The notes under the pieces are model-generated. The model searched no databases and was not told the origin of the DNA. It saw nothing but the letters and a program-made list of their open reading frames with translations. A DNA stretch of 64,000 nucleotides from positions 28,375-92,374 of the IMG/VR virus record IMGVR_UViG_3300025740_000004; one strand, 5' to 3'. Below are positions 8,287-64,000 of this stretch, piece by piece; the first letter of the stretch is position 1; each line of letters opens with the position of its first letter. A program made the translations under genes and the position numbers. This stretch comes from a virus (Duplodnaviria; Caudoviricetes).

Positions 8287-8922
8287 ATGAAAACTTCTGA
8301 AATACAAAAAGATATTGTTAACATTTCTAAAGATCATATGAAGAAGAAAATGAAAGCTATTCATATTGGAGATCTTCTGGATGGATTACTTAAAAAATAT
8401 GGGATTAAAAGATTTGAAGATGAGGGTTCTGATTTTAAAGATCGATTTTCTGATATTATTGATTCTATGAAAAAATCTGAAATTATTAAAGAAGTTCCAA
8501 TAGGATATATTGTTGTTATTCCTGGTGGTGAAAAACTTATAAAAGAATCTAGAACATTTTCAGAACATTTAAAATTTTTGGTTGAAGGAAAATTAAACGA
8601 AGCTACTAATGATTTTTCAGATACAGCTTTTGACGAACTTAAGAAAATGAATTTTAAGTTTAACGGTAGTAAAGGAGTTTTTTCTAAAGATGTTTTTGCA
8701 GATTCTAAAATTTCAAAAATTCTTGTAATAGCTCCTACAGACGATGAAGATGAAGTTGAACTAAAAATTTATAATTATAAGCTAGATGAAGATAATCTAT
8801 ACTTAGAAGGGTATACAATCCCAACATCCAAACTTTCTAATATAAGTAAAATTGTAACATCTTTAGAAAAATTTGCAGATGAAGAAACTAAATTTCTTAA
8901 AGTCTGGGGAAGTAGGTTTTAA
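8287..8922 (+). CDS. Late protein with internal capsid-targeting-like segment
   Basis: ATAAATA box at ~8261; internal IKES-RTFSEHLKFLVEGKLNEA. Confidence 0.75.
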   Translation: MKTSEIQKDIVNISKDHMKKKMKAIHIGDLLDGLLKKYGIKRFEDEGSDFKDRFSDIIDSMKKSEIIKEVPIGYIVVIPGGEKLIKESRTFSEHLKFLVEGKLNEATNDFSDTAFDELKKMNFKFNGSKGVFSKDVFADSKISKILVIAPTDDEDEVELKIYNYKLDEDNLYLEGYTIPTSKLSNISKIVTSLEKFADEETKFLKVWGSRF

Positions 8923-8979
8923 TATGAGTACATTTTCAGAACATTTAAAATTTTTAGTTGAAGGGAAATTAAACGAAGC
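8554..8979 (+). repeat. 50-bp direct repeat (8554-8603 / 8930-8979) encoding TFSEHLKFLVEGKLNEA
   Basis: 48/50 identity read directly from the sequence. Confidence 0.95.
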
Positions 8980-9310
8980 AGATTCCAAGGATTTTCACCC
9001 AGATGTGAAAGAAGTTTTAGAAGAGTTACCATATATTACTTTTAATAAAGATGCTTTAGGAAAAACAGCAATTGCTAAACTAGATGATGTGAAACGAGTT
9101 GGGGCTTATTCTTGTAACATCTATCCAAATTCTGAAAAAGATATTGCTGTGACTATTTCTCTCAAACCAGTAGATTCTAATAAGATCATAACTCTTTCGG
9201 AAAGATTAATTAATACTGAAGATAGTGCTTGGGAAAAGAACTTTAAGAAATTCATTAACGAAGCAAGAAAAATTGTAGAGAAATTATCTGAACTAAATCA
9301 AGCAGACTAA
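8924..9310 (+). CDS. Putative internal head protein (leader MSTFSEHLKFLVEGKLNEA)
   Basis: ATG at 8924 after AGG, in frame with ORF 8873..9310. Confidence 0.7.
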   Translation: MSTFSEHLKFLVEGKLNEADSKDFHPDVKEVLEELPYITFNKDALGKTAIAKLDDVKRVGAYSCNIYPNSEKDIAVTISLKPVDSNKIITLSERLINTEDSAWEKNFKKFINEARKIVEKLSELNQAD

Positions 9311-9333
9311 TCAGAAATTTAATCTCACATCTT

Positions 9334-9381
9334 AATTAAATTTATAAACCTCTTGACATTCCTGATTAAATATTGGATAAT
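9334..9381 (+). promoter_or_regulatory. Phage sigma70-type promoter (family copy)
   Basis: AATTAAATTTATAAA..TTGACA-17-GATAAT with ATTAAA in the spacer. Confidence 0.75.
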
Positions 9382-9404
9382 CAGATTAATGGAAAGAGGT
9401 TTTA

Positions 9405-10313
9405 ATGTCTTTAACAGATAATTGGAAAAAAATATTAAATAGAAATGGAAGAATATTAAGTGCCTCACATGCTGATCTTGATGGTGTAGGTTGTTCTATA
9501 GTACTCCAAAACATTTATAAAAATATAGAATTCAAATCTTTAAAATATGGTGAAGTAGATAGTTTCTTAAAAACTGTAAATTTCAAAAATTATGATTGTG
9601 TGATTTTAACAGACATATCTCCAGAGTTTAAAGAAACATTTGATTTGTCTGATAAAATTTTCTTATTAGACCATCATGAATCCGCAGTAAAATATCATAA
9701 TCCTGAAAGAAATTTATTAGTCAACACGAAAAATTCTGCATCAGTTTTTGTGAAAGAGTTTTTTGAAAAGTTATTTAATCTAGATCTTTATTATTTAAAT
9801 GATCTAATTTCTATAATAGATGATTTTGATTTATGGAAACTTCAAGACCCAAGATCAAAATATTTTAATGAACTTTATTTTAAAATGTATGAATCAGATT
9901 TTCGAAGAAGGTTTGGAAATGGAAATACAAAACTTACTCAAGAAGAAATTGATTATGTATTAGAAAGAAAGAAACAATTTAAAGAAACTTATGAAAAATT
10001 AGATATATATGAATTTGATTCTATAAATGCATGTTTCTTTATCTCTACAAATTTCGTAAATGATATATGTCACAAACTGATGGAAGAAAAAGGATATCAA
10101 TTAACTATCTGTATAAATCCTAAATCAAGATCCTGCTCAGTAAGAACCAAAGAAGATTGTCTAGATGTTGGAAAAGTTTTAGAAATTTTAGGACTTGGTG
10201 CCGGACATAAAAAAAGTGCTGGTTTTAGACTTTTAGAAAATGAAGAACCATCTACAAAAATTGATATGATTGAGAAATACCTTTATTACAATTATGAGGA
10301 TATTAGAAAATGA
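9405..10313 (+). CDS. DHH/DHHA1 phosphoesterase
   Basis: HADLDG, TD, LDHH and GAGHKKSAG motifs. Confidence 0.88.
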   Translation: MSLTDNWKKILNRNGRILSASHADLDGVGCSIVLQNIYKNIEFKSLKYGEVDSFLKTVNFKNYDCVILTDISPEFKETFDLSDKIFLLDHHESAVKYHNPERNLLVNTKNSASVFVKEFFEKLFNLDLYYLNDLISIIDDFDLWKLQDPRSKYFNELYFKMYESDFRRRFGNGNTKLTQEEIDYVLERKKQFKETYEKLDIYEFDSINACFFISTNFVNDICHKLMEEKGYQLTICINPKSRSCSVRTKEDCLDVGKVLEILGLGAGHKKSAGFRLLENEEPSTKIDMIEKYLYYNYEDIRK

Positions 10314-13234
10314 GAACGTTTAAAAACATTTATTACGACTCTTGGAAAAACAAAATGTATCTTTGGGAATATGACTCGGATACTGATAGAACTGAAATGA
10401 AAGAATTTGATCATGAAATTGAATATTATGTTTTAGATAAATCTGGAAAGAGTTCTATAAAAAGTATCTATGGTGATCCTGTAATAAGAAGAGTCACAAA
10501 GTCTAAAGATAAATTAAAAGAACTTAAAGAATCTGGGGAAAAATTATTCGAATCAGATCTATCAGAAGAAGTTAAATTTCTACATAAAAGATATGATCCT
10601 GAAGAAGATTTATTAGTTGATTATAATAAATTCGTTATAGCAAATATAGATATAGAAATTCAAACAGAAGGAGTATTTCCAAAACCTGAAGAAGCTCTAT
10701 TTCCAATTAATCTAGTAACAATTCAATTATTAAGAACTGGAGAAATTTATACTCTAGGCTTGAATCCATATACAGGAAATAAATTAGATAAATCTGTAAA
10801 TTACCTTCATTGTAAATCTGAAGAACAATTAATACAAAATCTATGTAAAATATTAAAACACAAAAAAGTTACCTCTATCACTGGTTGGAATACGAGTGGT
10901 GATTTAGGTGGTTTTGATATTCCTTATATAGTAAATCGTATCGAAAGACTTAATCTAGATTGTTCCTTATCACCTATGAATAAACATATTAAAAAATATA
11001 ATGGTGATATAGAAATTCCTGGTATTGCAGATTTTGATTTACTAAAACTTTATAAGAAATATACATATGTAAATCAACCATCATATTCTCTAAACTATAT
11101 TGGACTCTTAGAAGTAAATGAAGGAAAGTTAGATACTGAAGGTTCTATCCAAGACTTATGGAAAAGAGATTGGAATTTATTTGTAGAGTATAATATTCAA
11201 GACGTTTTACTAGTTTCTAAAATTGAAAAGAAAAAGAAATTAATAGAACAAGCAATTAACTTCTATACTCTTACTAGAACTCCTCCAAATAAAGTATGTT
11301 CTACTGTGGCAGTTGCTGAAGGATATATTAAAAAATTCTTGATGAGAAGAAATTTAGTAATCCCAAATAGAAAAGAAATTACTTCAAATGAAAAAATTAA
11401 AGGAGCTTTCGTATCAGCTATTCCAGGATTTTATCTATACTCAATTAATATAGATGCTACAAGTCTTTATCCTTCTTTAATGAGACAATTTAATATCAGT
11501 CCAGAAACTCAAAGACTCTATCCAAAAGATATTGAAGGACTTATTAAAACAAATATGGATGGATTGTATTATATAAAAGAACAAGGCATCATTCCAGAAA
11601 TTGTTACGGAAATGTTTAACCTAAGAAAGTATCACAAAGAATTGGCATCAAAATATGAATTAGAAGGAGATGTAGAAAAATTTGAATATCATGATTCACA
11701 ACAATTAATTTATAAAATTTTCATCAACTCAATCTATGGGGCTTTTCTAGAAAAAAGTTTTCATTTCTTTGATATTAATAATGGATCTTGTATTACATCA
11801 ATGGGAAGAGAAATTATTCAATATGTTGCAAAAAATGTAAATAATTTTCTTATAAATGAATTTCCTACATTTGCAAAACAACATTATCCCAACTTTAAAA
11901 ATAGTATCACAAAAAAGAATAAAATTTCGGTTATAGATACGGATTCGGTCGCTGGTTCTTCTTTAATAAATACTGATAGTGGTGATATTAAGATAGAGGA
12001 TATATTCGATAACTATTCATATAATAAACAAGAAAAATCTCAAGATAATTTTATAGCATCTGTAGATAATTTAAAAACATTATCATTCAATAAAGATACT
12101 AAAAAGTCTGAATATAAAGATATAAAATATATTAAGAAACATAAAGTTAAAAAAAGATTATTCAAAGTCAAACATATGAATGATGAAGTTATAGTTACAG
12201 AAGATCATTCTATAATAATTGAACGTAACGGAAAATACTTAGATATATCAGTAAAAGATTTAATCAAAGGAGATAAAATAATAAAATCTTCTTTAATACA
12301 TTCTAATGATTTTGAAATTAAAGATTTGGGAATTCAAGAAGAATGGGTTTATGATATTGAAGTAGATAATAATCATAACTTTTTTGCAAACAATATCTTA
12401 GTACATAATTCAAATTATATTAATCTTGAAGAAATTTTTATATCATGTAATACTGGATTAGATTTCCTACATTTTACTTTAGACTTTGAGGAAAAAATCC
12501 TACAGCCTTTCTTGAATAAAATTATGAAAGAATTTGCAGAAAAATATGACACAGAAAATCTTATTCAATTCAAAAGAGAAAAGATAATTCTAAAACAATA
12601 TGTGCAATGTAAAAAGAAATATATAACACAAATTATAGCAAACGAAAAGAAAATCTATAAAGAACCTATAGTGAAAATTACAGGAATCGAACTTAATAAA
12701 TCAGATCTTTGTAAATTCTCTAAAGATAGTCTTGGTAAACTTTGTGAAATAATGTTCCAAGGAGAAAGGCCAAATAAACAAAATATGCTAAATCATATCC
12801 GACAAGCATTTAATGAATTCAAAACTCATAATATAAATGAAATATCTACCCCAAAAGGTGTTAAAGATTATGATGCATATAGCATAGAACTTGATCAATC
12901 TTATTCAAATTTCAAACCACATACACCAATTCATAATAGAGCTTCCATCATTTATAACCAAACTATAAAAGATAATAATCTACCATATATGGAAATCTTT
13001 AATGGAACTAAATTGAAATATATCTATACAAAAGAAAATAATAAGTATAAATCAAATATCATAGGATTTATAGGAAACTATCCAAAAGAATTCGAATCAA
13101 TTTTTACTATAGATTATGAAGAACAATTTAACACTCAGTATCTAAATATCGCCCAAAGATTCTTCGATACTCTAGGTTTTGGACAAGTTACCCTAAAAGA
13201 TTCTAAACTATTGAGGCTAATTGAAGAGGAATAA
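10310..13234 (+). CDS. 43: gp43 family B DNA polymerase containing an intein
   Basis: DIE exonuclease motif, DATSLYPS, KIFINSIYG, DTD/S split by the intein, KKKY. Confidence 0.96.
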   Translation: MRTFKNIYYDSWKNKMYLWEYDSDTDRTEMKEFDHEIEYYVLDKSGKSSIKSIYGDPVIRRVTKSKDKLKELKESGEKLFESDLSEEVKFLHKRYDPEEDLLVDYNKFVIANIDIEIQTEGVFPKPEEALFPINLVTIQLLRTGEIYTLGLNPYTGNKLDKSVNYLHCKSEEQLIQNLCKILKHKKVTSITGWNTSGDLGGFDIPYIVNRIERLNLDCSLSPMNKHIKKYNGDIEIPGIADFDLLKLYKKYTYVNQPSYSLNYIGLLEVNEGKLDTEGSIQDLWKRDWNLFVEYNIQDVLLVSKIEKKKKLIEQAINFYTLTRTPPNKVCSTVAVAEGYIKKFLMRRNLVIPNRKEITSNEKIKGAFVSAIPGFYLYSINIDATSLYPSLMRQFNISPETQRLYPKDIEGLIKTNMDGLYYIKEQGIIPEIVTEMFNLRKYHKELASKYELEGDVEKFEYHDSQQLIYKIFINSIYGAFLEKSFHFFDINNGSCITSMGREIIQYVAKNVNNFLINEFPTFAKQHYPNFKNSITKKNKISVIDTDSVAGSSLINTDSGDIKIEDIFDNYSYNKQEKSQDNFIASVDNLKTLSFNKDTKKSEYKDIKYIKKHKVKKRLFKVKHMNDEVIVTEDHSIIIERNGKYLDISVKDLIKGDKIIKSSLIHSNDFEIKDLGIQEEWVYDIEVDNNHNFFANNILVHNSNYINLEEIFISCNTGLDFLHFTLDFEEKILQPFLNKIMKEFAEKYDTENLIQFKREKIILKQYVQCKKKYITQIIANEKKIYKEPIVKITGIELNKSDLCKFSKDSLGKLCEIMFQGERPNKQNMLNHIRQAFNEFKTHNINEISTPKGVKDYDAYSIELDQSYSNFKPHTPIHNRASIIYNQTIKDNNLPYMEIFNGTKLKYIYTKENNKYKSNIIGFIGNYPKEFESIFTIDYEEQFNTQYLNIAQRFFDTLGFGQVTLKDSKLLRLIEEE
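11945..12409 (+). mobile_element. Mini-intein (155 aa) in the polymerase catalytic DTD|S motif
   Basis: Starts SVAGSSLI; block B VTEDHS; ends VYDIEV..HNFFANNILVHN followed by S; no endonuclease domain. Confidence 0.92.
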
Positions 13235-13302
13235 ATATAGTTGATCTATGGAAATTCTATTAGATCATTTCTAAAAATCATAATAAAACATAAAGGAAAA
13301 AT

Positions 13303-14445
13303 ATGGCAAAAGAAAAAGTATTAGGAAACAATTTGAATAAAGCTTCAAATTTGATGGAAAGATTATTAAAAAATAGTACACTAAAACATGCTGCAAGACT
13401 TGACGAATCTGAAATATTAAATGAAATTCCAGCAGTCCCGACAAGAATTCCGATGTTAAATTTGGCACTTAATGGAAGAATTGATGGTGGAATCGAACGT
13501 GGACTTACAATGTTAGCAGGTCCGTCTAAAAGTTTCAAGACAAGTTTTTCGCTAGAAATGATTTCGGCGTATTTAAAAGCAAAACCAAACGCGGTATGTT
13601 TATTTTTTGATGGAGAATTTGGTGCTAAGAAATCATATTTTGAACAATTTGATGTACCAACCCACAAAATCCTACATTTGCCGTTCGAAAATATCGAGGA
13701 ATTAAAATTTGAAATGGCAAATCAGTTAACAAATGTGGAATTGGGAGAAGATGTTATATGTTTTGTGGATAGTATTGGTAATGCTGCTTCAAAAAAAGAA
13801 GTTGAAGATAGCATTGATCAAAAGTCTGTCGCAGACCTTTCGAGAGCAAAATCGCTTGCTAGTTTATTTAGAATTATTACTCCAAAGTTATATCTTAAAA
13901 GAATTCCTTGTATTATTGTTAATCATACAATGAAGACGATGGATTTTTATCCTGTCGATTTGCCGAAAGGAGGAAATGGAGGAATCTATAGTTCGAATAC
14001 TATTTGGCTAATTGGTAAAAATAAACTTAAGGAAAAGGAAGAACATACTGGTTATAAATTTCTAATCAAGATGTATAAGAGTAGAGATATTAAAGATAAT
14101 GCTATGTTTCCAATTACCGTAAGATTTGAAGGCGGTATTGCTAAATGGTCTGGATTAGATGAATTAGCATTACAATTAGGTATTATTGAAAAATGTAAAG
14201 AAGGAAGATCATCGGCATATCAATATCAATCAATTAGTGGGGAAATTTTTAAGGTTTTAGAAAAGGATGTTGATGTTGATGATGCATTTTGGGAAAGGAT
14301 TTTTAAGGAAACTGATTTTCAATATAGAGTAGAATGTTTATATCAATTTGGAAAACACTCTGAAGATAAAGTTCATTTCGATTCTTCTGAAGTCGATGAA
14401 ATTATTAAAAATGCTGTAGTAATTGATTTGAATAAACCAGAATAA
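13303..14445 (+). CDS. uvsX: UvsX RecA-like recombinase
   Basis: GPSKSFKT, FDGEFG, DSIGNAASKKE..D, VNHT. Confidence 0.95.
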   Translation: MAKEKVLGNNLNKASNLMERLLKNSTLKHAARLDESEILNEIPAVPTRIPMLNLALNGRIDGGIERGLTMLAGPSKSFKTSFSLEMISAYLKAKPNAVCLFFDGEFGAKKSYFEQFDVPTHKILHLPFENIEELKFEMANQLTNVELGEDVICFVDSIGNAASKKEVEDSIDQKSVADLSRAKSLASLFRIITPKLYLKRIPCIIVNHTMKTMDFYPVDLPKGGNGGIYSSNTIWLIGKNKLKEKEEHTGYKFLIKMYKSRDIKDNAMFPITVRFEGGIAKWSGLDELALQLGIIEKCKEGRSSAYQYQSISGEIFKVLEKDVDVDDAFWERIFKETDFQYRVECLYQFGKHSEDKVHFDSSEVDEIIKNAVVIDLNKPE

Positions 14446-14451
14446 AATATT

Positions 14452-14497
14452 TCTAATATAGGGTCTATTTTTTAATTTTTATAGACCTTATATTAGA
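14452..14497 (+). terminator. Long hairpin after uvsX (probable terminator)
   Basis: TCTAATATAGGGTCTAT / ATAGACCTTATATTAGA inverted repeat. Confidence 0.55.
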
Positions 14498-14528
14498 TCT
14501 TAAAAATTAATTAAAGACTTATCGGATA

Positions 14529-14576
14529 AATTAAATTTCTAAAGGTCTTGACTCTTGAAATTAAAGATTGTAAGAT
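14529..14576 (+). promoter_or_regulatory. Phage sigma70-type promoter (family copy)
   Basis: AATTAAATTTCTAAA..TTGACT-17-TAAGAT. Confidence 0.8.
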
Positions 14577-14598
14577 ATGTATATAAGAGGTGCGATAA

Positions 14599-15984: not shown

Positions 15985-15993
15985 GGAACAATT

Positions 15994-16949: not shown

Positions 16950-16951
16950 TC

Positions 16952-35815: not shown

Positions 35816-36370
35816 ATGGGATTTAAACAATTTTTATTAGAAGCTAGACAAACGATTCCTCAGATTTGGTATCATGGGACTTCTGTGGATTTTAAAGAGT
35901 TTGATCTAAAATATATAATAACTGATAAATCAAATGCTGCTGATGGTCCTGGATTTTATTTAACCAATCAAGATGAAGATGCTGGAAATTATGCTAGAGG
36001 TTATATTAAAACTGTTGAACTTTTAAAAACATCAAATATAAAACTAGGATCTTCAAAATTTAATAAACAATTTTTTGAAAAACTTGTAGATGATATGCCA
36101 GATAAAGAAATAGTTTTATCAAATTGGGACGAAAATCCAAAAATTGCTATGAGAGATCTAAAGAAATCTATTTTTGATACGACTAAAACTCTTAGAGATA
36201 TTATAAATGAAGTTTGGGGTGAATGTTATAAAGGATATGAAAAAGAATTATTAAAGAAATTAGTAGATGAAGGAATTGATGGAATTATTGTTAAACAAAG
36301 ATTCGGAGTTCTTCATCTAATATGTTTTAATAAAGATATTCTTAAAATTGTAAAAACAGAAAAGCTCTAA
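35816..36370 (+). CDS. ADP-ribosyltransferase-like late protein with capsid-targeting-like leader
   Basis: MGFKQFLLEA; WYHGTS..F..FD, GPGFYLT..A..YA, GIDGII; ATAAATA at ~35783. Confidence 0.7.
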   Translation: MGFKQFLLEARQTIPQIWYHGTSVDFKEFDLKYIITDKSNAADGPGFYLTNQDEDAGNYARGYIKTVELLKTSNIKLGSSKFNKQFFEKLVDDMPDKEIVLSNWDENPKIAMRDLKKSIFDTTKTLRDIINEVWGECYKGYEKELLKKLVDEGIDGIIVKQRFGVLHLICFNKDILKIVKTEKL

Positions 36371-36574: not shown

Positions 36575-37057
36575 TCAATTATTTTTTATCATTTGTTCAT
36601 AATATCTAATTAGTTGATCTTCTGTTTTGAAATATAATATGTCTTTTGGTTTATAATTTACTATTTCTCGTCCTTTAATTATAAATCCATCATATCCAAT
36701 ATTTAACATTTCTTTTTCGAATGATGTATTATTTTCAAAGAATCCGATGTTATATGATTCATTATGTTTGTCGCAGAATTTTTTAATTATTGTCTGTCTC
36801 CAAATTTCAGCATCATTCAAGGAGTTTACAATTTTTGGATTTTTTGGAATTGCATTTACTACAAATCTTAATTCTCCATATTGTTTAATGAATTTTTTAT
36901 TGCTTAATGGAACTGTGTATAATCCAGAACCAAATGATCCATATATTTGATTATCATTGTTTCCTTCTTTTACTCCACGCAATGTAACATTATTTTTCTT
37001 CCAATTTTTATAATCATCAATGCTTTCATTTAATATTAAAAATTCTGTAAATAACAT
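36575..37057 (-). CDS. ART-like late protein with capsid-targeting-like leader
   Basis: MLFTEFLILNES; TLRG..FGSGLY..YG..GYDGFII; TATAAATA upstream. Confidence 0.6.
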   Translation of the reverse strand: MLFTEFLILNESIDDYKNWKKNNVTLRGVKEGNNDNQIYGSFGSGLYTVPLSNKKFIKQYGELRFVVNAIPKNPKIVNSLNDAEIWRQTIIKKFCDKHNESYNIGFFENNTSFEKEMLNIGYDGFIIKGREIVNYKPKDILYFKTEDQLIRYYEQMIKNN

Positions 37058-37146: not shown

Positions 37147-37434
37147 TTAGTCTTCGTCTTCTTCAGTTTCTAATTCTGTACCAACGAGTTCTGCAATCTT
37201 TTGAACTGCTTTAAGAGCCTTTTCATCTTCAGTTTTGGTAAGATATTCAGCAAGCTTTGAAACAACAGTATCTAAAGCTTTGAAATTCTTTACCTTTCTC
37301 TCTTCCTTCTCGTCTTCCATTTCATCCTTCTGAACTTTCTTAGAAGGTTTTTCTTCTTTCTTCATTTCTTTAGGACAAATAGTAGCCTTTTCAGTAAGGT
37401 ATCTATTAACTTTATCAAAATCTACATCTTTCAT
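37147..37434 (-). CDS. Small charged late protein (scaffold/internal-like)
   Basis: CAGGAG RBS, ATAAATA box; leader ends YLTE. Confidence 0.7.
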   Translation of the reverse strand: MKDVDFDKVNRYLTEKATICPKEMKKEEKPSKKVQKDEMEDEKEERKVKNFKALDTVVSKLAEYLTKTEDEKALKAVQKIAELVGTELETEEDED

Positions 37435-37480: not shown

Positions 37481-37714
37481 TTATTTTTCTAAAATCTTCT
37501 GAATCTTTTCGAACTGCTCTTTGGTAATAGATAACCAACGAGTTTCAGATTTTTCTCCCATAATTTTAATTTGAGGTTTAAAATCTTTAGAAAGTTTTAT
37601 TTTAGAAAACTCGTACTTAATATAATCCTTATCACTAAAATTAGTTTCCTTGTCTTTTGAAATAGTATTCTTCTCTTCGAGTAAATAATTTGTCTTAGTA
37701 AAATCTATATTCAT
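37481..37714 (-). CDS. Small late protein (leader MNIDFTKTNYLLEE)
   Basis: GGGAG RBS before ATG 37714. Confidence 0.65.
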   Translation of the reverse strand: MNIDFTKTNYLLEEKNTISKDKETNFSDKDYIKYEFSKIKLSKDFKPQIKIMGEKSETRWLSITKEQFEKIQKILEK

Positions 37715-37716: not shown

Positions 37717-38469
37717 TTATGCTCCCTTCTTTGTAATAGCTTTGTAAATTGCTTTCTTCTCTTCTTCTGACCAATTTCCAGATAAATGATAAGTTAAATA
37801 TTTTGTTTCACCAGTCTTATAATTTTCTTCACCATCATCTTTATAATATGTCCCAGAATGATATGATCCATTTGAAGGATTATTAGCAAAATTGTTCTTT
37901 AAGAATTTAATCGCATCTTCTACAGAATCAAATTCTTCACCTTCTTCATCTTCCCAACCCTTATCGTCAGTTTCACCAGCTTCTATAGAATCTTCATCCC
38001 AAATTTCATAAGAGACTGTAATTCTTTTACTATCATCTTTAGATTCATTAATGCTTTTATTATATTTGTCTGCAATTTTTTTAGCAGTTTGTTTTGATTT
38101 TTCAGAAATATCACCTTGAAAGTCTGACCAAGTTTTTGATTTTTTATCATATACTGCATATTCAGCATCATCGGCATCTTCTCTAGGATATATACCAACT
38201 TCAAAGGTTTTAACAGATTCTAATAATTTATTTTTAATATTTTCATTGATAGGTTCTACTTTAACTGCTTTTAACATAACTGGAGTTTTATCTTTAGACA
38301 TAGCTTTAACATTCTTTCCTAGATACGCCTTTTTACCAGCTTCGAAAGATCCTTTAAACTCTATATCTTTTTTCATGCCATTATCAAAAGTAACTCTTAA
38401 AACAGTTTTCGCTTCTGTTAGAGTATGTTTATCTTGTAAAAGTTTGTTTACTGATTCAAATAAATCCAT
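37717..38469 (-). CDS. Multi-domain late protein with repeated (L/I)xE cleavage-like sites
   Basis: LFES, LTEA, INEN, LLES and INES separate short domains; GAGGA RBS. Confidence 0.7.
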   Translation of the reverse strand: MDLFESVNKLLQDKHTLTEAKTVLRVTFDNGMKKDIEFKGSFEAGKKAYLGKNVKAMSKDKTPVMLKAVKVEPINENIKNKLLESVKTFEVGIYPREDADDAEYAVYDKKSKTWSDFQGDISEKSKQTAKKIADKYNKSINESKDDSKRITVSYEIWDEDSIEAGETDDKGWEDEEGEEFDSVEDAIKFLKNNFANNPSNGSYHSGTYYKDDGEENYKTGETKYLTYHLSGNWSEEEKKAIYKAITKKGA

Positions 38470-38493: not shown

Positions 38494-38865
38494 TTATTTT
38501 AATTGATTTAATGCTATTCTAATTTGATGGGCAATCTCAGATTCATTTCCCATAAAGAAATATCTCTTCTTATCATACTCTATTCCAAAAACCTTTCCGC
38601 CCATCTTTGCATGAATAAATCCTAAAACATATCCAGAGTCTAAAAGTTCTTCATGATCATTTAAACCATAGTCATCATAAGTCACTGCAATATCTTGTAA
38701 TACTGTATGAACTTTTCTAGGATCTATTCCTTTCTCTTTTAGATAATATTTTAAAATATCTTCTATAGTATCTGATTCTGAAAATTCAAATTTTAATTTA
38801 GAAAAATCCCCATTATTACTTTCCATGAGATTTTGTCTTTTTTCTTTTAGATAACTTTTAAACAT
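38494..38865 (-). CDS. Late protein with leader MFKSYLKE..LMES
   Basis: AAGGAG RBS; leader motif. Confidence 0.7.
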   Translation of the reverse strand: MFKSYLKEKRQNLMESNNGDFSKLKFEFSESDTIEDILKYYLKEKGIDPRKVHTVLQDIAVTYDDYGLNDHEELLDSGYVLGFIHAKMGGKVFGIEYDKKRYFFMGNESEIAHQIRIALNQLK

Positions 38866-39604
38866 TCTTACTCCTTCCTTTATCTAATAATAGCTTCTTC
38901 ATAAACTCTTTGTAACTCTTCCATGCTTCTTTATCATCAAAATAATCTAACTCTTTTTGATAATTTGAATGTGAAATTTTTGGAATCCATTGATCAATTT
39001 CTTTTAATATCTTAGAATATTCCATACCTTTTAAAATCATATTCTCTATATTTCTCTCGGCCATTGTAGAAAGATTTGCCTTCTTCTCCCAAGGGAATGA
39101 AATGTATTGTTTATAATTTTTTGACTTCAATTGATCTTGCATTTGACCATCGACATCTAATTCTTTTCTAATCGTCCTGTCGTTATTAATAGGGTCTAAT
39201 GCGTGGCAAATTTCATGTCTAACCCTATCTATAAAATCTTCTTTGATAGATTTGTCTGAAAAGTTTTTAATCTGCTTTGGAGACATAAAATAAATTGTAA
39301 CTCTATTCATTTTTCCTACATCAAATCCACCATCGAATCTAATCAAATCTTTTTCAGGTTTTTGTGAAATTGTAAAAATGATCTTGTTAGAATTTTCATA
39401 AACATCATGAGTTATTCTTCTTTTAAAAATGTCTACAGAATCATGAGATAAGTTTCCTAAAATATGCTCCGGAGAATAACCTTCACGTTTTTGTAATTTC
39501 AACCATTCAGAAGTTAATTCATAAGCTTGATTTGCATAGTCTTTCATATCATCAGAAAGAGTCATTAAATTTGTAGATTCGAAAAGTGCTCTAAAAGAAA
39601 TCAT
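38858..39604 (-). CDS. HExxH zinc-metallopeptidase-like late protein
   Basis: MISFRALFES; RHEICHALDP..Y..FPWE. Confidence 0.7.
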   Translation of the reverse strand: MISFRALFESTNLMTLSDDMKDYANQAYELTSEWLKLQKREGYSPEHILGNLSHDSVDIFKRRITHDVYENSNKIIFTISQKPEKDLIRFDGGFDVGKMNRVTIYFMSPKQIKNFSDKSIKEDFIDRVRHEICHALDPINNDRTIRKELDVDGQMQDQLKSKNYKQYISFPWEKKANLSTMAERNIENMILKGMEYSKILKEIDQWIPKISHSNYQKELDYFDDKEAWKSYKEFMKKLLLDKGRSKNV

Positions 39605-40338
39605 TGAAAATCCCTATCAATAAGTTTATTTATAGATAGAATAAATCTCTTCCAAACTTTAGGATCTTCGTGATAAAATTTTAATAAAGAATTTTCTGGA
39701 GTATAGTTTTTCAAATAATTCAAAGCGTCTTTTTTAGATCTGGATTTCTTCTTAATATCTTTAAAAACTTCTTCTGCTTCTGTAGATATATAAGCATCAA
39801 GTTCCCAAGGAAATTTATAATACTCTTTAAATAATTTTTCTAAATCTTTTTTAGCATTTTGTCTCTCGTCAAAATCTTTAGAATAGATAATAATTTTCTT
39901 TAACTTTTCTACATTATCCCTAAAAGATTTTATAACTTTATCAGACTTTTCTTTTAATTCTGGTTTGTTTAATTTTGGATCTATAGAATGAATTAACTCA
40001 TGTAAAATAAGTCTTCTAACATTTTTAAATTCATTTCCGCCTTTTTTAAAATCATTGTAAAGATCTTCTGAAACTGTTATCCAAAGAACATCATCCTTAA
40101 TCCAAAAGTGATATTTACTATCTTTTATATTAATATTTACTTTAACTTCTTTATCACCAAACTTAGATTGAATTTCTCCAGAATATATTTCTTTTTGATC
40201 AAGTTTCTTTTGAAAATAATTGTAAGTAACATGAGAATCTATAAGTTCATAAAGTTTTTTAATAACTTCATCCGCAAAATTTTCCATAGATTTATTAATT
40301 TGAATAGATGCTTCTGTTAAAAATGTAGTAAAGTTCAT
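39601..40338 (-). CDS. HExxH zinc-metallopeptidase-like late protein (paralog of previous)
   Basis: MNFTTFLTEA; LHELIHSIDP..YY.FPWE. Confidence 0.7.
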   Translation of the reverse strand: MNFTTFLTEASIQINKSMENFADEVIKKLYELIDSHVTYNYFQKKLDQKEIYSGEIQSKFGDKEVKVNINIKDSKYHFWIKDDVLWITVSEDLYNDFKKGGNEFKNVRRLILHELIHSIDPKLNKPELKEKSDKVIKSFRDNVEKLKKIIIYSKDFDERQNAKKDLEKLFKEYYKFPWELDAYISTEAEEVFKDIKKKSRSKKDALNYLKNYTPENSLLKFYHEDPKVWKRFILSINKLIDRDFQ

Positions 40339-50554: not shown

Positions 50555-51394
50555 ATGCGATTTAAAACATTTTATTTAAAAGAAGTTGTTTCTCCAGAAA
50601 AGCCAAAAAAAGTATATTCAAAAAGCGTAATTAAAAACGCTGGGACAAATACCGCACATAAACTTAGATATAAAGAATTCGTAACAAAAAACGGAAATAA
50701 AGTTTATGTTACATTTAAAGATACTTTTGATGATGGTATTAAAATAGATTTTCAAGTAAATGATTCTTTTGATGATTCTAATTTAAACGATGTGAATGTA
50801 TTAAAAAATGTTTTATATGTTGTTTTAAGAGAAGTTAATAAAAAGAAATATAAAAGAATCGAATTGAATCCAAAACATAGATCAGATTTAAATAGAAATA
50901 ATAAACATATTAGATTTGATTTATTTAGAAAGTTGATTAATAAAAATCTTAATGATTATTCGGAATATTATGTTGATCGTTCTGATTATGGCGAATCAGA
51001 TCATATTTTATTAGTAAGAAAAGAAGATATAAAAGAATCTGAAGAAAGAACTCATGGAAAACTTTTATCCGAATTAAAACCTTCTTTGAAAACAGTTATG
51101 ATTTTTAGAGCAAGAGATTCTAAAGGTGATGAATTTGATTCTAAAGATTATGTAACATTGTCTTCAAAATTTGCTCTAGAACATGCTGAATCAAATCATG
51201 TATATAATGATGAACAATATATTGTAATAAGAGCGATAGTTCCTACAAATCAATTAGCAGAAGCATCAAATCCTGGAGAATGGTTTTATATAGGTCCGAA
51301 AATTCATGGTGATGTCGTTTATAAATCTCTTGGTCCAGATGATTATGAAGGGAAAATAATTGATTTAAAATTTGCTAGGAAATTAAAATTATGA
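50555..51394 (+). CDS. Two-domain late protein, leader MRFKTFYLKE, C-terminal ART-like domain
   Basis: ATAAATA upstream; internal IKES; IFRA..YVTLS..A..HA..GEWFY. Confidence 0.65.
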   Translation: MRFKTFYLKEVVSPEKPKKVYSKSVIKNAGTNTAHKLRYKEFVTKNGNKVYVTFKDTFDDGIKIDFQVNDSFDDSNLNDVNVLKNVLYVVLREVNKKKYKRIELNPKHRSDLNRNNKHIRFDLFRKLINKNLNDYSEYYVDRSDYGESDHILLVRKEDIKESEERTHGKLLSELKPSLKTVMIFRARDSKGDEFDSKDYVTLSSKFALEHAESNHVYNDEQYIVIRAIVPTNQLAEASNPGEWFYIGPKIHGDVVYKSLGPDDYEGKIIDLKFARKLKL

Positions 51395-51811
51395 GATTTA
51401 AAACATTTTATTTGAAAGAGAATATTAAATTTTTTTCGAAAACTACATTAGATTTTGTGAAGGATCTTGGATATTCTAAATCCATCACTCCAAGAAATAC
51501 AATAATCGTTTATCATGGAACTTCAAAAAAGAATGCAGATAACATTTTAAAAACTGGAAAATTTAAAGGACATCCGTGGTTTGCGTTGGATAAATCAATT
51601 GCTGAAAAATATGCTACTTCTCATGGTGGAAAGAATAATACAATTTTGACTTTAGAAATCGATCCATCATCAGTTCTTCCAGTAGCTGGTTCATATTTAT
51701 CTGCTAGAATGGAAGGACTAACAATTCATGGAAAAGATTCTAATAATAATGTTTGGCATCTTCCGAATGAGGAATTAAAATTATGAGATTTAAAGAATTT
51801 TATTTGAAAGA
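51381..51811 (+). repeat. 39-bp junction repeat (51381-51419 / 51773-51811; partial copy 50555-50583)
   Basis: AATTAAAATTATGAGATTTAAA(AC/GA)ATTTTATTTGAAAGA, 37/39 identical. Confidence 0.95.
51391..51786 (+). CDS. ART-like late protein, leader MRFKTFYLKE
   Basis: VYHGTS..NA..I...G, WFA...A..YA. Confidence 0.7.
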   Translation: MRFKTFYLKENIKFFSKTTLDFVKDLGYSKSITPRNTIIVYHGTSKKNADNILKTGKFKGHPWFALDKSIAEKYATSHGGKNNTILTLEIDPSSVLPVAGSYLSARMEGLTIHGKDSNNNVWHLPNEELKL

Positions 51812-52364
51812 AGCATCTGGTCAAAATTTAATAATTGTTGATATACAACCTTCTTATAAAAAGGCTATTAAATTTTCTATAGAATCTTTTTGTGATCATT
51901 TAATTGAAGAAGATTATACTAAGATTCTATATTTATATAATGGACCAGATTTGGGTATGGAAAATTCTGATGATATAATGGATTTTCTTATTGAAGATGG
52001 TTTAGATTATGATGAAGAAAAAGTTGAACAAATGCCTCATATGACATTTTATGAAAAAGGATATGCATTTTATAGGGATATGATGGATTCTGGTTATGAT
52101 TATAAAGACATTGTAAAACTTATTAAATATATGTTAAGTAAAAATTATAATACGTCTGAAGATTTAGAAGAAGATGAATGGAAGACCTTAAAAATTGAAG
52201 ACCCTGCACCTAATAGAATTTTTATACCAGATGTTCTAGATATGCTTAAAAAATATAATAATATTGTTTTGTGTGGTGGAAAGAATGAATGTTTAGCAGA
52301 GATTGAAATTTGTTTAGATGTTCTTGACAAACCATACACATTATTAAATAAGTTTGTTTATTAG
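51783..52364 (+). CDS. Isochorismatase/cysteine-hydrolase-like late protein, leader MRFKEFYLKE
   Basis: LIIVDIQP..EKG..LCGGKNECL (D/K/C triad pattern). Confidence 0.65.
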   Translation: MRFKEFYLKEASGQNLIIVDIQPSYKKAIKFSIESFCDHLIEEDYTKILYLYNGPDLGMENSDDIMDFLIEDGLDYDEEKVEQMPHMTFYEKGYAFYRDMMDSGYDYKDIVKLIKYMLSKNYNTSEDLEEDEWKTLKIEDPAPNRIFIPDVLDMLKKYNNIVLCGGKNECLAEIEICLDVLDKPYTLLNKFVY

Positions 52365-52403: not shown

Positions 52404-53075
52404 ATGTCAGAATTTAGAAATTATGTAGAAGATACTATGTTATTTGAATCTTATGTTGGAGAAGTTGAATCTAAAGAAGATTTTCAAGAACTTCTAACAG
52501 TTTTAACAGAATGTGAAGAAAGACTTGATGAATTTCTTGGTCTAGGAAAAGTTGGATCCGCTCTTAAGAAGCTTTCTGATAAAGGTGATAAGAAAGCCGA
52601 AGAGGTCAAGAAGGCCACTAAGGAGACTGTAGAGAAGGGTAAAGATGTGGTCAAGGGAATGGCTAAAGATGCTGTAGACGCTGTTAAAAGGGATGCTAAA
52701 GAAGTTGCGCAGAGTCATAAAGAGATTGCTGTAGCTGTTGGAAAGAAAACATCTGAACTCGCGAAAGAAGCTAAAGATAAGTTCGTAAAAGTTTCTGCTC
52801 AAGGTCGAGATGCTTTAAAGAAGATTTTCAAAAATATTAAAGATGCTAGTGAAGATCAGAAGAAAGTATTAGCAGAACTCGAACCATTGTTTATGAAAAT
52901 TGATGATGGAAAGAAGTCTGTAAGCGGTAGTGAAGGAATTAAAATTTTGGCGGCAATCCTCGGAATGGGACCAGATGGACAAACTCCTTCTTACAAAAAC
53001 TATACTAAGAAACTTGAAATGCTTCGTACTACTCCTATGTTAAGTTCTTTCAAGATTTCTGTAAAAAAGATTTAA
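52404..53075 (+). CDS. Ala/Lys-rich helical late protein (probably abundant)
   Basis: TATAAATA box, AAGGA RBS, LFES and LDEF sites. Confidence 0.75.
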   Translation: MSEFRNYVEDTMLFESYVGEVESKEDFQELLTVLTECEERLDEFLGLGKVGSALKKLSDKGDKKAEEVKKATKETVEKGKDVVKGMAKDAVDAVKRDAKEVAQSHKEIAVAVGKKTSELAKEAKDKFVKVSAQGRDALKKIFKNIKDASEDQKKVLAELEPLFMKIDDGKKSVSGSEGIKILAAILGMGPDGQTPSYKNYTKKLEMLRTTPMLSSFKISVKKI

Positions 53076-53149: not shown

Positions 53150-54478
53150 ATGATAAACGAAAATTTACTAAACATTGCAGATCATTATTTAACAGAAGCT
53201 TCAAATACTTATTTAACAGTTTTGAATCAATATTATAATAAAAAGACTGGAAATAATTATCCAAATCCAGATGAATCTAGAGAAGATCTTCAGCAAAAAG
53301 TTGTAGATATTGCTTCCGAAATGAATCTAGATGTTCCTGGAAAAGATCTTAGAACAAAAGCTAATAATGCTAATCGATTAATCTTAGCAAATTTAAAAAA
53401 TGTAAAACCAGATACTGAAAAGAAAACTGGTCCAAAAACTTCTATCACTACAACTGGAACAGATACTGAAGAAGCACCTAATGATATAGAACAAAAGAAA
53501 TTCCCTAAGTATGATGAGTTTAGAAAAAAATGGTATGCCACAACAGTTTCTATGGGTTGGCCTAAAGATTTAAAAGTTCCAGATGTAAATGATAGTCTTT
53601 CTGAAAAAGGTATTATATATCCTTGGAGTAGTGTTACAAAATCTGCTTATCCATTTAATAAGAGAGGAAAAGGTGTAGTAACTTTTAGAAACTATACCAA
53701 AAAAATTCAAGATTATTTGTATACTAAATTTGAAAATGATCTTCCAGGATTAAAGAGATTATTAGAAAAGGTTGAATCTATTGTAGAAGTTGAGAAACAA
53801 TTTTTAAAAAAGAAACCTACAAATTTCGTCGGAACTCTTTTATTGAATATGTTTAAAGGAATTGGTGGAACTGAAAAGGATGAAGCTATTTTAAAATGGT
53901 TAGGTCAAAAGTCTACTGGAATGACTGTATTTGAATATCAGAAATATATTTTAGAAGAGATGTTAACAAAAATGTCTGTAGGTGATGATGTATCTAAAAC
54001 ATTAAAACTTATTCTATTTCCTTTATATAAACAGATTAAGAATACTTGTGAGAAATATTTTATTATAGAACCTGTTAAATTTGAAGATAGAAATTTCCAC
54101 GACAACGAATACCAAGCATATTTTAATGTAAAGGTTCGTCCTGGTACAAAATCTCAACAATACTCTATGGCTTATTCTCCTTTCGTATTTGTTTTAGAGA
54201 ATAATGTTTTACCACTCCTTGAAGGAAAAGGTATAGGATCTAAGTCTGGAAGAAAGTTAGAATCAGATGTAGATGTAGATGATGTAAAAGGGTTAATAAA
54301 ATCTTTAAAGAATACTACAGAAGATGAAGCATTAAAGAAAATAAATAAATCTCCAGATATAGAATTGGTTTATGATGCTTTAGATGATCAAGATAAAGTT
54401 ATAGGAAAATATTTTATAGAGTTTGGATATTTTAATAAAGGTTGTAAGATAACTGTTGGATATCGTTCGGAGAAATAA
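53150..54478 (+). CDS. Large late protein, leader ending YLTEA
   Basis: ATAAATA 5 nt before ATG. Confidence 0.75.
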   Translation: MINENLLNIADHYLTEASNTYLTVLNQYYNKKTGNNYPNPDESREDLQQKVVDIASEMNLDVPGKDLRTKANNANRLILANLKNVKPDTEKKTGPKTSITTTGTDTEEAPNDIEQKKFPKYDEFRKKWYATTVSMGWPKDLKVPDVNDSLSEKGIIYPWSSVTKSAYPFNKRGKGVVTFRNYTKKIQDYLYTKFENDLPGLKRLLEKVESIVEVEKQFLKKKPTNFVGTLLLNMFKGIGGTEKDEAILKWLGQKSTGMTVFEYQKYILEEMLTKMSVGDDVSKTLKLILFPLYKQIKNTCEKYFIIEPVKFEDRNFHDNEYQAYFNVKVRPGTKSQQYSMAYSPFVFVLENNVLPLLEGKGIGSKSGRKLESDVDVDDVKGLIKSLKNTTEDEALKKINKSPDIELVYDALDDQDKVIGKYFIEFGYFNKGCKITVGYRSEK

Positions 54479-54479
54479 T

Positions 54480-54698: not shown

Positions 54699-54745
54699 CT
54701 TGAAATTAAATTTTTGAAGACTATTTTAATTTTGAGCTTGTGAGA

Positions 54746-54793: not shown

Positions 54794-54811
54794 AGAATAA
54801 GTGAGGAACCT

Positions 54812-61745: not shown

Positions 61746-62026
61746 TTTATAATCTTTCTCTAGAAGGTTTTCAAAGACAAAAGAAACATGGAATTTATAT
61801 TTTCGAAAGTCCTGGATGTTTTACTTGTTCATATCACATAGAAGAATTTTCTAAACACTTTTCGGAATTTTATATCATATCTACTTTAGAAGATCCTGCA
61901 TATTTTGATTCTATAGAAATTGGAATCACACCTACAACAAGAATCTATAAAAATGATAAATTGATTTGGACAAAAGAGGGAGTTCTTTACGATACACAAT
62001 TAGATGAAATGAGAAAATTTTTATGA
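61742..62026 (+). CDS. Thioredoxin-like protein (paralog)
   Basis: CFTC and TPTT. Confidence 0.65.
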   Translation: MIYNLSLEGFQRQKKHGIYIFESPGCFTCSYHIEEFSKHFSEFYIISTLEDPAYFDSIEIGITPTTRIYKNDKLIWTKEGVLYDTQLDEMRKFL

Positions 62027-62457
62027 TAAATCAATTACAAAAATTATGGGAATCTTATATAAACTATTCCAAACTTATAGAATCTAATAATGGGAATTCT
62101 TTTTTATCAGAACTTAGAAAACAAGATTTAGAAAGGTTAGAAATCATTAAGAATCAAATTCAAGAGATTGTTAAAAATAATAAACAAGAACTTGAACAAA
62201 TTTCTTCTGATGAAAATCTTATTCCAAATTTTGTAGCAGAATCTTTGAAGAAAATGTATGCTCCTCAATATGGTCTTCAATCAATTTTAGAAGATTATCC
62301 AGATGATGAAGATGGGAATGATTGTAAAGAAAAATATGAAGAACTTTCTAGATACTGGTATAAACAAAAAGAGTTTTATCATAGTTTAGGAATTAATAGT
62401 TTAAAGACGATTAGATTTTATTTGAATTTAAAAAGTATAATAAAGGAGTTTGAATGA
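62023..62457 (+). CDS. Hypothetical protein
   Basis: Operon packing. Confidence 0.7.
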   Translation: MINQLQKLWESYINYSKLIESNNGNSFLSELRKQDLERLEIIKNQIQEIVKNNKQELEQISSDENLIPNFVAESLKKMYAPQYGLQSILEDYPDDEDGNDCKEKYEELSRYWYKQKEFYHSLGINSLKTIRFYLNLKSIIKEFE

Positions 62458-63167
62458 ATATTAAATTTGTAGTAGCAAGATATGAGAATGATAATTTTGA
62501 AGGATTTTTATCAGAGACTATAAAAGATTATGAACATGAATTTATTTGGAACGATGAAGGAAGTTCTATTTTTGAAAAGTATAATATTGGTGTAAATAGA
62601 CTTGTACAAAAAGGTTTAAATGGAGATGATGTAGTTTGTTTCTGTCATGCTGATGTAAAGTTTATAGATCCTGATTGGGAAGAAAAAGTTAAATATGCTT
62701 TCCAAAATATTCAAGGTCTTGGTGTAGCTGGTGTAATTGGTGCTACTGAACTTCACGAAACTGGAGGATGGTGGTTATCTGATCAATCTTTACATAGAGG
62801 TCATGTTATGCAATGGGTTGATGATAAGGAAGAAAACAAATATCATATGATTCGTAAGGAAGGAAATTTTACAGATTGTTGTGTTGTAGATGGTTTATGT
62901 ATGTTTGTTATCGGCCATATTGCACAAAATCTTAGATGGGATTATCAAACGTTTCCAGAATCTTATGATATGTATGATTTAGATTATTGTCTTTCTGTAA
63001 TGGGTCATGGATATAAAGTTGCTGTTTTAGATATTCTTCTTGAACATAAATCTGCTGGGGTTGGTGTTATGAAAGATTCTTGGAAAATTAATAAAGAAAA
63101 GTTCATTAACAAGTGGAAAGGTGCTGGTGTAAATTTTCCTATAAAGGTTATTACTAAAAATGGCTGA
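62454..63167 (+). CDS. GT-A glycosyltransferase (StrF/GT2-like)
   Basis: YN.G, CHADV, GVIG, VDG, YDLD.C, H.S.G. Confidence 0.8.
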   Translation: MNIKFVVARYENDNFEGFLSETIKDYEHEFIWNDEGSSIFEKYNIGVNRLVQKGLNGDDVVCFCHADVKFIDPDWEEKVKYAFQNIQGLGVAGVIGATELHETGGWWLSDQSLHRGHVMQWVDDKEENKYHMIRKEGNFTDCCVVDGLCMFVIGHIAQNLRWDYQTFPESYDMYDLDYCLSVMGHGYKVAVLDILLEHKSAGVGVMKDSWKINKEKFINKWKGAGVNFPIKVITKNG

Positions 63168-63561
63168 TAAAGAAGAGAAGAAAGATATCTGGTATTTTTG
63201 GAAAGTCTTATGTCAAAAGAAACTACATCCAGACGATTTATCAGAAGATGATTTGTCTGGATACAATGTTTATCAAATGAATCGAATTTTGTCTAGTATT
63301 AATATGTATCTTCCAGAAGTAGCAGAATTAACAAAATATGATCTTCCAAAAGAGGTTCATTATAGATATCTTTACAATCTTCTTCCTAAAAAATATCTGC
63401 CAGTAGAATATCCTAAAGCTAAAAAATCAAATGATGAAGATTCAAAAGTTGTGGCAAAATATTTTGAATTTGGTTCTAGAGATACTAAACAAGCTTTACA
63501 AATTTTAACAGAAACTGATATCAATAATATTAAAAAGAAATATGGTGGAAGAATTCGTTAA
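63160..63561 (+). CDS. 62: gp62 clamp loader small subunit
   Basis: YNVYQMNRILS, HYRYL..LPK, YFEF...A..IL. Confidence 0.8.
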   Translation: MADKEEKKDIWYFWKVLCQKKLHPDDLSEDDLSGYNVYQMNRILSSINMYLPEVAELTKYDLPKEVHYRYLYNLLPKKYLPVEYPKAKKSNDEDSKVVAKYFEFGSRDTKQALQILTETDINNIKKKYGGRIR

Positions 63562-63587
63562 AATAAATACTCTTAAAAAGGTAATTC

Positions 63588-64000
63588 ATGTCTTTCAAAA
63601 ATTTTTATATTTCTGTAGTAGATTCAAAGTTAGAACAAATTAATGAAGTCTTTGAAAACTTATTTGAAGCATCTGAGGGATTTTATAATCTAACATCTAA
63701 TGGAAAGATGCAGTTTGAGAAATCATTTGAAGAAGCTCCGGAAATTTCTAAAGCGTCAAATTTTACAGTATTAAACCTTTCTAATGAAGATGATAAAAAG
63801 AAAATTATAGATCTGAAGAAGAAAGGTTTTGTAAGATTTTTAATGTATGTTGCTGAAAAATCTAGAATAGTAAAACCTTCTATAGACTCTGATTATTTCT
63901 TAGTACCAAAAGAATTTTTCACATTTACTACATTAAAACCTTCCAACGATACAGAAAAGTCTTTATTAAAATCTATTAAAGAAAAAGAATCTCAAAGAAC
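63588..64000 (+). CDS. Late protein with leader MSFKNFY..LFEA (runs off window)
   Basis: ATAAATA at ~63563, AAGG RBS, open to the window end. Confidence 0.65.
   Translation, partial: MSFKNFYISVVDSKLEQINEVFENLFEASEGFYNLTSNGKMQFEKSFEEAPEISKASNFTVLNLSNEDDKKKIIDLKKKGFVRFLMYVAEKSRIVKPSIDSDYFLVPKEFFTFTTLKPSNDTEKSLLKSIKEKESQR

Follow-up and report, generated by a model that had tools for sequence, protein, structure and literature searches.

The locus considered here raises a simple question: why do so many otherwise unrelated genes of one phage begin with nearly the same short peptide? The DNA is a window of 64,000 nucleotides, the final 64 kb of a 92,374-bp viral contig (IMG/VR record IMGVR_UViG_3300025740_000004, Caudoviricetes), and the peptide is an aromatic-rich N-terminal leader that typically ends in L-x-E and is followed by a different protein, the cargo, in each gene. 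The answer proposed is that these leaders are propeptides of the T4 type which target proteins to the capsid, and that the phage probably loads an unusually large protein kit into its head for injection with the DNA. A probability of about 0.72 is given to the capsid-targeting reading, and it is held at that level because packaging, cleavage and injection are deduced. The same interpretation had been offered in a preliminary description of the window, and it is supported as the best available one.

Leader-like open reading frames (ORFs) number 15 in the window, where about 17 had been counted originally, and five lie upstream on the same contig (contig 4155-4526, 5606-5953, 10624-10782, 26792-27214, and 27803-28099). 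Strict leaders, of which there are about nine or ten, follow the consensus M-x-F-K/T-x-F/Y-(Y/L)-L-x-E, with the glutamate at residue 8-11 and leucine at P3 in 9 of 10. A looser class is characterized by the ending L-(F/T)-E-(A/S); the non-strict leaders are longer (13-27 aa) and finish with LFE↓S, LFE↓A, LTE↓A, or LNE↓A, where the arrow marks the predicted cut. About ten leader genes can be considered robust. The strict expression ^M.{0,2}F..[FY].{0,2}[LIF].E matches eight ORF starts on the 92-kb contig, against an expectation of 0.12 in shuffled N-termini and of 0.10 from the rate at internal positions, and MISFRALFES and MNKFKTFFTKE are two further strict leaders recognized by eye. The tetrapeptide L[FT]E[AS] is found seven times within the first 30 residues and three times in 24,021 other positions (p=6e-7, a value which, like the other p-values, is indicative only, as the motif definitions were chosen after the data had been seen). 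Independent anchors therefore weigh more than these statistics. Of the three copies beyond residue 30, one belongs to the scaffold and another to the N-terminal region of the major capsid protein (MCP), at DLFE52↓S53. A position matrix trained exclusively on leaders of other contigs scores seven N-termini at 8 bits or more, with 0.8 expected, and none of 777 internal control windows reaches 10 bits. The first, simpler expressions were dropped because they were too loose and caught a homing endonuclease and a methyltransferase; the association of one such motif with late boxes was nonsignificant.

Common N-termini could also result from the duplication of whole genes. This origin is ruled out by an all-against-all blastp comparison without the first 12 residues, which returns a single weak paralog pair, the products of genes 38858 and 39601 (E 4e-5; window genes are named here by their first coordinate). 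The leader family is real: each of the 12 N-termini quoted in the preliminary description is present at its stated ORF, and the bodies behind the leaders are, apart from that pair, unrelated.

On its sequence, the contig belongs to a distant T4-like myophage, uncultured and very AT-rich (G+C about 26%). Compared with the nearest cultured phages, its DNA polymerase is about 30% and its MCP about 33% identical. Megablast of window 35000-55000 and tblastn of the 51783 product against the cultured phage collection gave no match, so that there is no cultured relative with proteomics to lean on. The head genes are encoded on the minus strand in the first 28 kb of the contig, outside the window, and comprise the MCP (contig 7280-8569, phrog_138), the scaffold (8603-9580, phrog_237, E 1e-10), a gp21-type prohead protease (9762-10421, phrog_207, E 1e-47), the portal (12630-14339), and neck proteins. 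The window itself holds replication genes, the gp45 clamp, and a gp55-type late sigma factor (3962-4390, plus strand, phrog_234, E 8e-27). In the prohead protease, H78 and S133 are invariant in an alignment of 46 sequences.

The capsid-targeting sequence (CTS) of T4 internal proteins is MKTYQEFIAE; it consists of 10 residues, is sufficient for packaging, and is removed by a single cut (PMC8442874). Residues 4 and 7 are important for targeting, whereas processing involves residues 8 and 10 (PMC9026906). The commonest leader of the contig, MRFKTFYLKE, also has 10 residues, with aromatics at positions 3 and 6/7, L8, and E10, and a homolog of the 51783 product on another contig (P0013) starts with MKTFKEF. 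The prohead protease contains KLLIE9 and YLTE21 at its N-terminus, both glutamates being nearly invariant among the 46 homologs, and T4 gp21 has the same LIE-9 (PMC9026906). This suggests that the protease may process itself, as discussed for T4 gp21. In the MCP, the block aligned with residue 16 of mature T4 gp23* comes seven residues after DLFE↓S, and a T4-like relative (G003) has ELNE↓D at the equivalent position; DLFE52↓S53 is accordingly the predicted maturation site. In AF2 models of two cargoes (39601 and 51783), the leader is placed, with low confidence, outside the globular fold. A complex prediction that combined the protease alignment with residues 1-40 of the 51783 family scored 0.00 and is not used as evidence either way.

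The same data bear on the idea that the leader is a protein signal for another purpose, such as an amphipathic helix for binding a membrane or a partner, a tag for a different part of the virion, or a degron, and that the proteins act late in the producing cell instead of being injected. The leader is predicted to be helical, some of the cargoes are acidic and large, the cut site is read by analogy, and packaging is deduced, all of which would suit such a signal. However, the leader ends in the known cleavage motif of gp21-type proteases, with the same tetrapeptide at the predicted MCP maturation site, and its length and key positions fit the experimentally defined CTS of T4 (PMC9026906). In G003, which carries a T4-type protease and a capsid gene, the leader ORFs lie within the head-morphogenesis cluster of portal, protease, and scaffold: six of them stand between portal and scaffold, the slot occupied in T4 by the prohead-core genes 67/68, and contig gene 26792-27214 has its ortholog among the six. 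Moreover, the ADP-ribosyltransferases (ARTs) and the Thoeris inhibitor described below would hardly benefit the infection that produces them if made only late. A signal for another purpose is therefore considered unlikely.

In the T4 system, internal proteins are expressed late, along with the head genes. The late box ATAAATA is present on the contig in 25+37 copies, compared with about 76+71 expected, and is thus about 2.4-fold depleted relative to base composition. About half of the copies lie at most 80 nt upstream of a start and in the correct orientation, with all major structural genes included. That such a 7-mer should recur by chance in a genome of 26% GC is ruled out as an explanation by the overall depletion together with the concentration upstream of starts; it seems that the motif is avoided outside promoters. 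A box stands directly upstream of 10 of the 15 leader genes in the window, compared with 9 of 81 other genes (p=1.5e-5). The statement that nearly all of them stand behind ATAAATA holds directly for these ten, and the remaining five are the next genes downstream on the same strand, apparently within the same late units. By promoter motif, all 15 can be read as belonging to late transcription units. A second motif, AAATTAAAGAT..TA..AT, which resembles an early or middle promoter, has five copies, none of which precedes a leader gene; the leaders are thus not equally common among early genes. In the form AAATTAAAGAT(T/G)GTAA(G/T/A)ATA, this motif is located at window 2141, 14561, 41272, 54778, and 59092 (plus strand), about 20-25 nt upstream of the starts of replication genes. 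The genes behind it include a gp46-like gene, an RNase H-like gene, the clamp, and others, and it is probably an early or middle promoter consensus.

In several late genes, ATAAATA ends 5-7 nt before the ATG, without a Shine-Dalgarno (SD) sequence (e.g., AATAAATAATTTC-ATG). Sites of this type occur at window 39601-40352, 50541-50557, and 53136-53152, at contig 5953-5967 and 10782-10794, and at 8927-8943 and 9528-9544 of a related locus (L012). Their late mRNAs would be leaderless or nearly so. It may hence be asked whether the conserved 5′ coding stretch is a nucleotide signal, namely, a translation-initiation enhancer for such mRNAs. Several leader genes do have the box at this distance and lack an SD sequence, leader DNA is very A/T-rich, and a 39-nt repeat at the cassette junctions (see below) is kept at the DNA level. 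Yet the leaders are found equally on genes with a good SD sequence and longer 5′ untranslated regions (35816, 38494, 51391, and 51783), and synonymous codons vary within them (TTT/TTC, GAA/GAG, and TTA/CTA/TTG). Diverged homologs change sequence and keep the pattern aromatic, aromatic, L-x-E; a relative with 34% GC has the leader too; and the L-F/T-E-A/S tetrapeptide also occurs 50 residues inside the capsid protein. An effect of this kind as the reason for the leaders appears very improbable.

Conservation beyond the contig points again to the peptide. Three cargo families (HExxH, isochorismatase-like, and ART) keep the leader at about 35-50% identity. The HExxH family has MNFTTFLTE↓A, MKFLQYLNE↓A, and MNFSQFLNE↓S. 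The 51783 family displays about 30 different leaders, all aromatic-rich and with x-E just before the domain start LIVDIQPSY, and includes one member without a leader that begins right at the domain. In the ART family, homologs of 35816 at 40-96% identity retain the leader. Some homologs are encoded on contigs of 173-305 kb.

The portability of the leader was assessed with a scan of viral and metagenome contigs for its back-translated DNA pattern. In other AT-rich phage contigs, no fewer than 12 cargoes unrelated to one another carry it at a genuine ORF start; short matches, up to 28 residues, were dismissed as chance. Those recognized by Pfam are ART-PolyVal, NUDIX, and a 2H phosphoesterase with a faint Acb1 match. 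Leaders are also present on genes adjoining the primary matches, which the scan itself had not selected, and one relative contig of 33.6 kb has about 14 leader genes in about 15 kb. In L012, an ORF not picked by the scan contains the domain of Tad6, a type I Thoeris inhibitor (E 7e-36), which binds ThsB (PMC13728456). Its N-terminus, MRFKEFSLINQ, is leader-like and has no glutamate at the expected position.

Cargoes differ between relatives at the same locus, which fits, together with the scan, the original idea of a modular arrangement of leader plus cargo. L012 is syntenic with window 40368-52404 at 58-83% amino acid identity and has different leader genes between the same flanks, its set comprising a 595-aa ART and the Tad6 protein. 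In another relative (L014), the product of 52404 is 99% identical, yet the cargo immediately upstream is different. The three cassettes of window 50555-52364 are joined by the 39-nt junction repeat, whose copies are 85-95% identical. The first description of variable ip genes flanked by conserved leader ends came from T-even phages (Repoila 1994, cited in PMC12373910). In G001 (loci L048/L049), a leader array at 11646-31594 is interleaved with six opposite-strand paralogs starting with M(P)KKLTTEEFIQKAKQVHGDKYDYSKV, possibly homing-endonuclease-like genes that mobilize the cassettes.

Cassette turnover of this kind suggests a further possibility, that the common N-termini are remnants of duplication or recombination, with an integron-like junction kept as a crossover site and a peptide that has no function. 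The 39-nt repeat extends into noncoding bases upstream of the ATG, and close relatives differ in cassette content, both of which speak for such an origin. In families at 35-50% identity, however, leaders that differ widely in DNA and peptide sequence keep the same pattern, which is not expected of neutral remnants, and leaders occur also on isolated genes outside arrays (8924, 63588, and contig 4155 and 5606). It is highly unlikely that the leaders are functionless; a role of the junctions in recombination complements the CTS reading instead of excluding it.

Under the capsid-targeting reading, the following course of events can be proposed. Late transcription of the leader genes would start at ATAAATA promoters that depend on gp55. 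The first 8-27 residues, aromatic-rich, helix-prone, and ending in L-x-E, would guide the proteins into the prohead's scaffolding core, and the gp21-type protease would cut behind the glutamate, as is predicted for the MCP at DLFE52↓S53. The mature cargo would be kept in the head and would enter the next host with the DNA, ahead of any phage gene expression. The cargoes would mostly be enzymes or inhibitors that serve host takeover or act against immunity, such as the ART-PolyVal protein, the nicotinamidase-like hydrolase, and the HExxH proteins, and producing anti-defence cargo late would be pointless unless it is packaged. The near-identical leader DNA at cassette junctions may double as a recombination handle for cargo swaps.

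The identity of the cargoes gives this scheme part of its content. Gene 35816 (35816..36370, plus strand, 184 aa) joins the strict leader MGFKQFLLE↓A to an ART-PolyVal domain and has a late box upstream. It scores 36.5 bits with Pfam PF18760 (cut-off 31.2), the profile is found in 8/8 homologs, and the product is firmly predicted to be an ART-PolyVal ADP-ribosyltransferase. This cassette is flanked on opposite sides by a RuvC-like resolvase gene (phrog_159, 35049-35783, minus strand) and by a 55-aa truncated paralog of it with the same N-terminus (36367-36546, minus strand). It looks as if the cassette had been inserted with partial duplication of the resolvase gene. Gene 51391 (51391..51786, plus strand, 131 aa), with the leader MRFKTFYLKE↓N, a YHGTS motif, and the 39-nt junction repeat, matches PF18760 at 19.3 bits, below the cut-off and in its N-terminal half only, and is similar to L012:11728; it is probably a divergent or truncated ART. 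Four ART-like cargoes had been announced originally, and for the other two no profile match supports the assignment. Gene 36575 (36575..37057, minus strand, 160 aa; strict leader MLFTEFLILNE↓S; TATAAATA upstream) has no match to PF18760 and none to PDB sequences, and it has only a GYDGxIxK motif in common with ART-like proteins. The C-terminus of the 50555 product (50555..51394, plus strand, 279 aa; MRFKTFYLKE↓V; late box 5 nt before the ATG), from the first cassette of the three-gene array, has no PF18760 match and an empty PDB sequence search, and it matches phrog_2579.

The last gene of that array, 51783 (51783..52364, plus strand, 193 aa; MRFKEFYLKE↓A), had been described as a cysteine hydrolase. 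Its product has no Pfam sequence match. The predicted structure has a pLDDT of 91.5, and the 17 best structural matches are all isochorismatase-like, with nicotinamidases first (VIA-align, Z 9.6-8.3, rmsd about 3 Å over 112-125 residues). D20, K92, and C170 are invariant in 24 sequences of the family, the triad being assigned by position and not by superposition. An isochorismatase-like cysteine hydrolase of the nicotinamidase superfamily is thus supported by the model, in agreement with the initial assignment.

Genes 38858 (38858..39604, minus strand, 248 aa; MISFRALFE↓S; TATAAATA upstream) and 39601 (39601..40338, minus strand, 245 aa; strict leader MNFTTFLTE↓A; late box 5 nt before the ATG) had been taken for peptidase paralogs. 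Their weak paralogy and the HExxH signature, which reads HEICH in 38858, are observed; a peptidase fold finds no convincing match. In the 39601 family, HExxHxxDP, which 38858 shares, and FPWExDA are both invariant. The AF2 model of 39601 has a pLDDT of 87 with residues 1-7 disordered, its best Foldseek E-value is 0.04 with scattered M48-like rows, and a wide VIA search matched a helical hairpin only. There is a weak atlas lead to LPD23, and a locus search with 39601 in viral contigs found no related locus.

Most cargoes have no family in PHROGs and Pfam. Gene 8924 (8924..9310, plus strand, 128 aa) is one of these; it has the loose leader MSTFSEHLKFLVE↓GKLNE↓A and is directly downstream of the late-boxed gene 8287-8922. 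A minus-strand group begins with 37147 (37147..37434), an acidic 95-aa ORF with the loose leader MKDVDFDKVNRYLTE↓K and a late box upstream. The 77-aa ORF 37481 (37481..37714), whose leader MNIDFTKTNYLLE↓E scores 11.1 bits with the external matrix, is the next gene downstream of 37717 on the same strand. Gene 37717 (37717..38469, 250 aa), with a late box and an SD sequence upstream, starts with MDLFE↓SVNKLLQDKHTLTE↓A and thus has two site-like tetrapeptides. Gene 38494 (38494..38865, 123 aa), with the strict leader MFKSYLKE↓K, shares its strand with 38858, whose end it overlaps. On the plus strand, 52404 (52404..53075) encodes a Lys-rich helical protein of 223 aa starting with MSEFRNYVEDTMLFE↓S, has TATAAATA upstream, and is conserved in L012 and L014. 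Gene 53150 (53150..54478, 442 aa) starts with MINENLLNIADHYLTE↓A and has its late box 5 nt before the ATG. The ORF at 63588..64000, which starts with MSFKNFYISVVDSKLEQINEVFENLFE↓A behind a late box, runs past the window end.

Two features lie apart from the leader genes. A TnpB-like ORF of 421 aa (46759-48024) follows a TATAAATA box between a ribonucleotide-reductase-sized and a macro-like gene, and its counterpart is absent at the matching position in L012. A direct duplication of about 4.7 kb, outside the window (contig about 10850-16431 and 16394-21099), spans the portal and its neighbours with a chimeric junction gene; it represents either a genuine tandem repeat or an error of assembly.

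Several points weigh against the capsid-targeting reading and are to be set beside the post hoc choice of motifs. The P1′ residue is variable (A, S, K, N, V, T, and E), the strict leader MNKFKTFFTKE has no leucine at P3, and the looser leaders are weak when taken one by one. A number of cargoes have an acidic pI (4.4-5.8) and are large, with up to 442 aa, whereas the internal proteins (Ips) of T4 are small and basic. The phage, moreover, is uncultured.

A broader and more tentative proposal, which is rather less probable than not, is that M-x-F-K-x-F-Y-L-K-E acts as an "inject me" tag which can be moved between proteins and is in use throughout a large, uncultured clade of T4-like, possibly also jumbo, phages with AT-rich DNA, whose heads would be preloaded with enzymes that dismantle immunity based on NAD+ or nucleotide signals at time zero. 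Candidates for such a set are the ARTs, the nicotinamidase-like hydrolase, NUDIX, and the Acb1-like 2H phosphoesterase, together with a Tad6-type ThsB inhibitor behind a leader-like N-terminus without the glutamate. To our knowledge, counter-immunity of this kind is so far known only from anti-defence proteins that are expressed and not packaged.

Work on the CTS has largely been confined to T4 and its nearest relatives, whose known cargoes comprise Alt and a handful of small inhibitors of restriction. If the reading proposed here is true, the tag would be ancient and general in the head assembly of T4-like phages, and catalytic counter-defence proteins could be delivered by phages before transcription begins. 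A 10-residue tag would also be a cheap finder of injected effectors in viromes, by metagenome-wide mining of sequence alone, and could be useful for designing protein delivery in phages other than T4.

Among known systems, the closest are the internal proteins of T-even phages (Ip1/IPI, Ip2, and Ip3). They have a leader of about 10 aa, cleaved by the prohead protease gp21, with aromatics followed by (L/I)-x-E, unrelated cargoes with the leader alone in common, late genes in variable loci, and a phage that encodes a gp21-family protease, a gp22-type scaffold, and a gp23-type capsid protein. At least 10 such proteins were identified by their signal sequence in related Tequatrovirus (PMC12373910), and an anti-defence role is given to T-even Ips in the literature (PMC12373910, PMC3012670, PMC9026906, PMC8442874). 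The contig differs in its consensus, M-x-F-K-x-F-Y-L-K-E, in which the aromatics are one position off, and in its 15-20 tagged genes on half a genome, compared with three Ips and Alt in T4. Its cargoes are mostly enzyme-sized and often acidic, whereas those of T-even phages are small basic inhibitors of type IV restriction.

T4 Alt is an ART delivered from the head after removal of an N-terminal propeptide (PMC9026906, PMC5512222), and the contig encodes at least one predicted leader-bearing ART (35816). The latter belongs to ART-PolyVal (PF18760) and not to the Alt/Mod family, is far smaller (184 aa), and is accompanied by a probable second ART-like cassette, in contrast to the single gene of T4. 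ART-PolyVal is in turn a domain of polyvalent proteins, for which co-injection with the DNA is predicted (Iyer et al. 2017, PMC5512222). The polyvalent proteins of phages and conjugative elements resemble the present system in their domain repertoire, namely, ART-PolyVal and the weak LPD23 lead of 39601, and in the predicted logic of effectors delivered with DNA. In those proteins, however, many domains are joined in one giant polypeptide, while here they are "unbundled" into separate small genes, each with its own leader. The ejection and inner-body proteins of phiKZ- and SPN3US-like giant phages likewise include many head-internal proteins that a diverged gp21 homolog cleaves after Glu (PMC5694885, PMC7411985). 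Their cleavage logos are not L-x-E, separate logos having been derived for T4, phiKZ, and SPN3US (PMC9026906), and their propeptides are often long, with no portable 10-aa tag at the N-terminus. The set described here is much larger per genome than that of T4, as had been claimed, and it is not a new concept, since the principle of CTS and internal proteins is established in T-even phages (PMC12373910). What sets it apart is its presence in a far deeper clade, with much larger sets and with cargo of enzymatic and anti-defence type.

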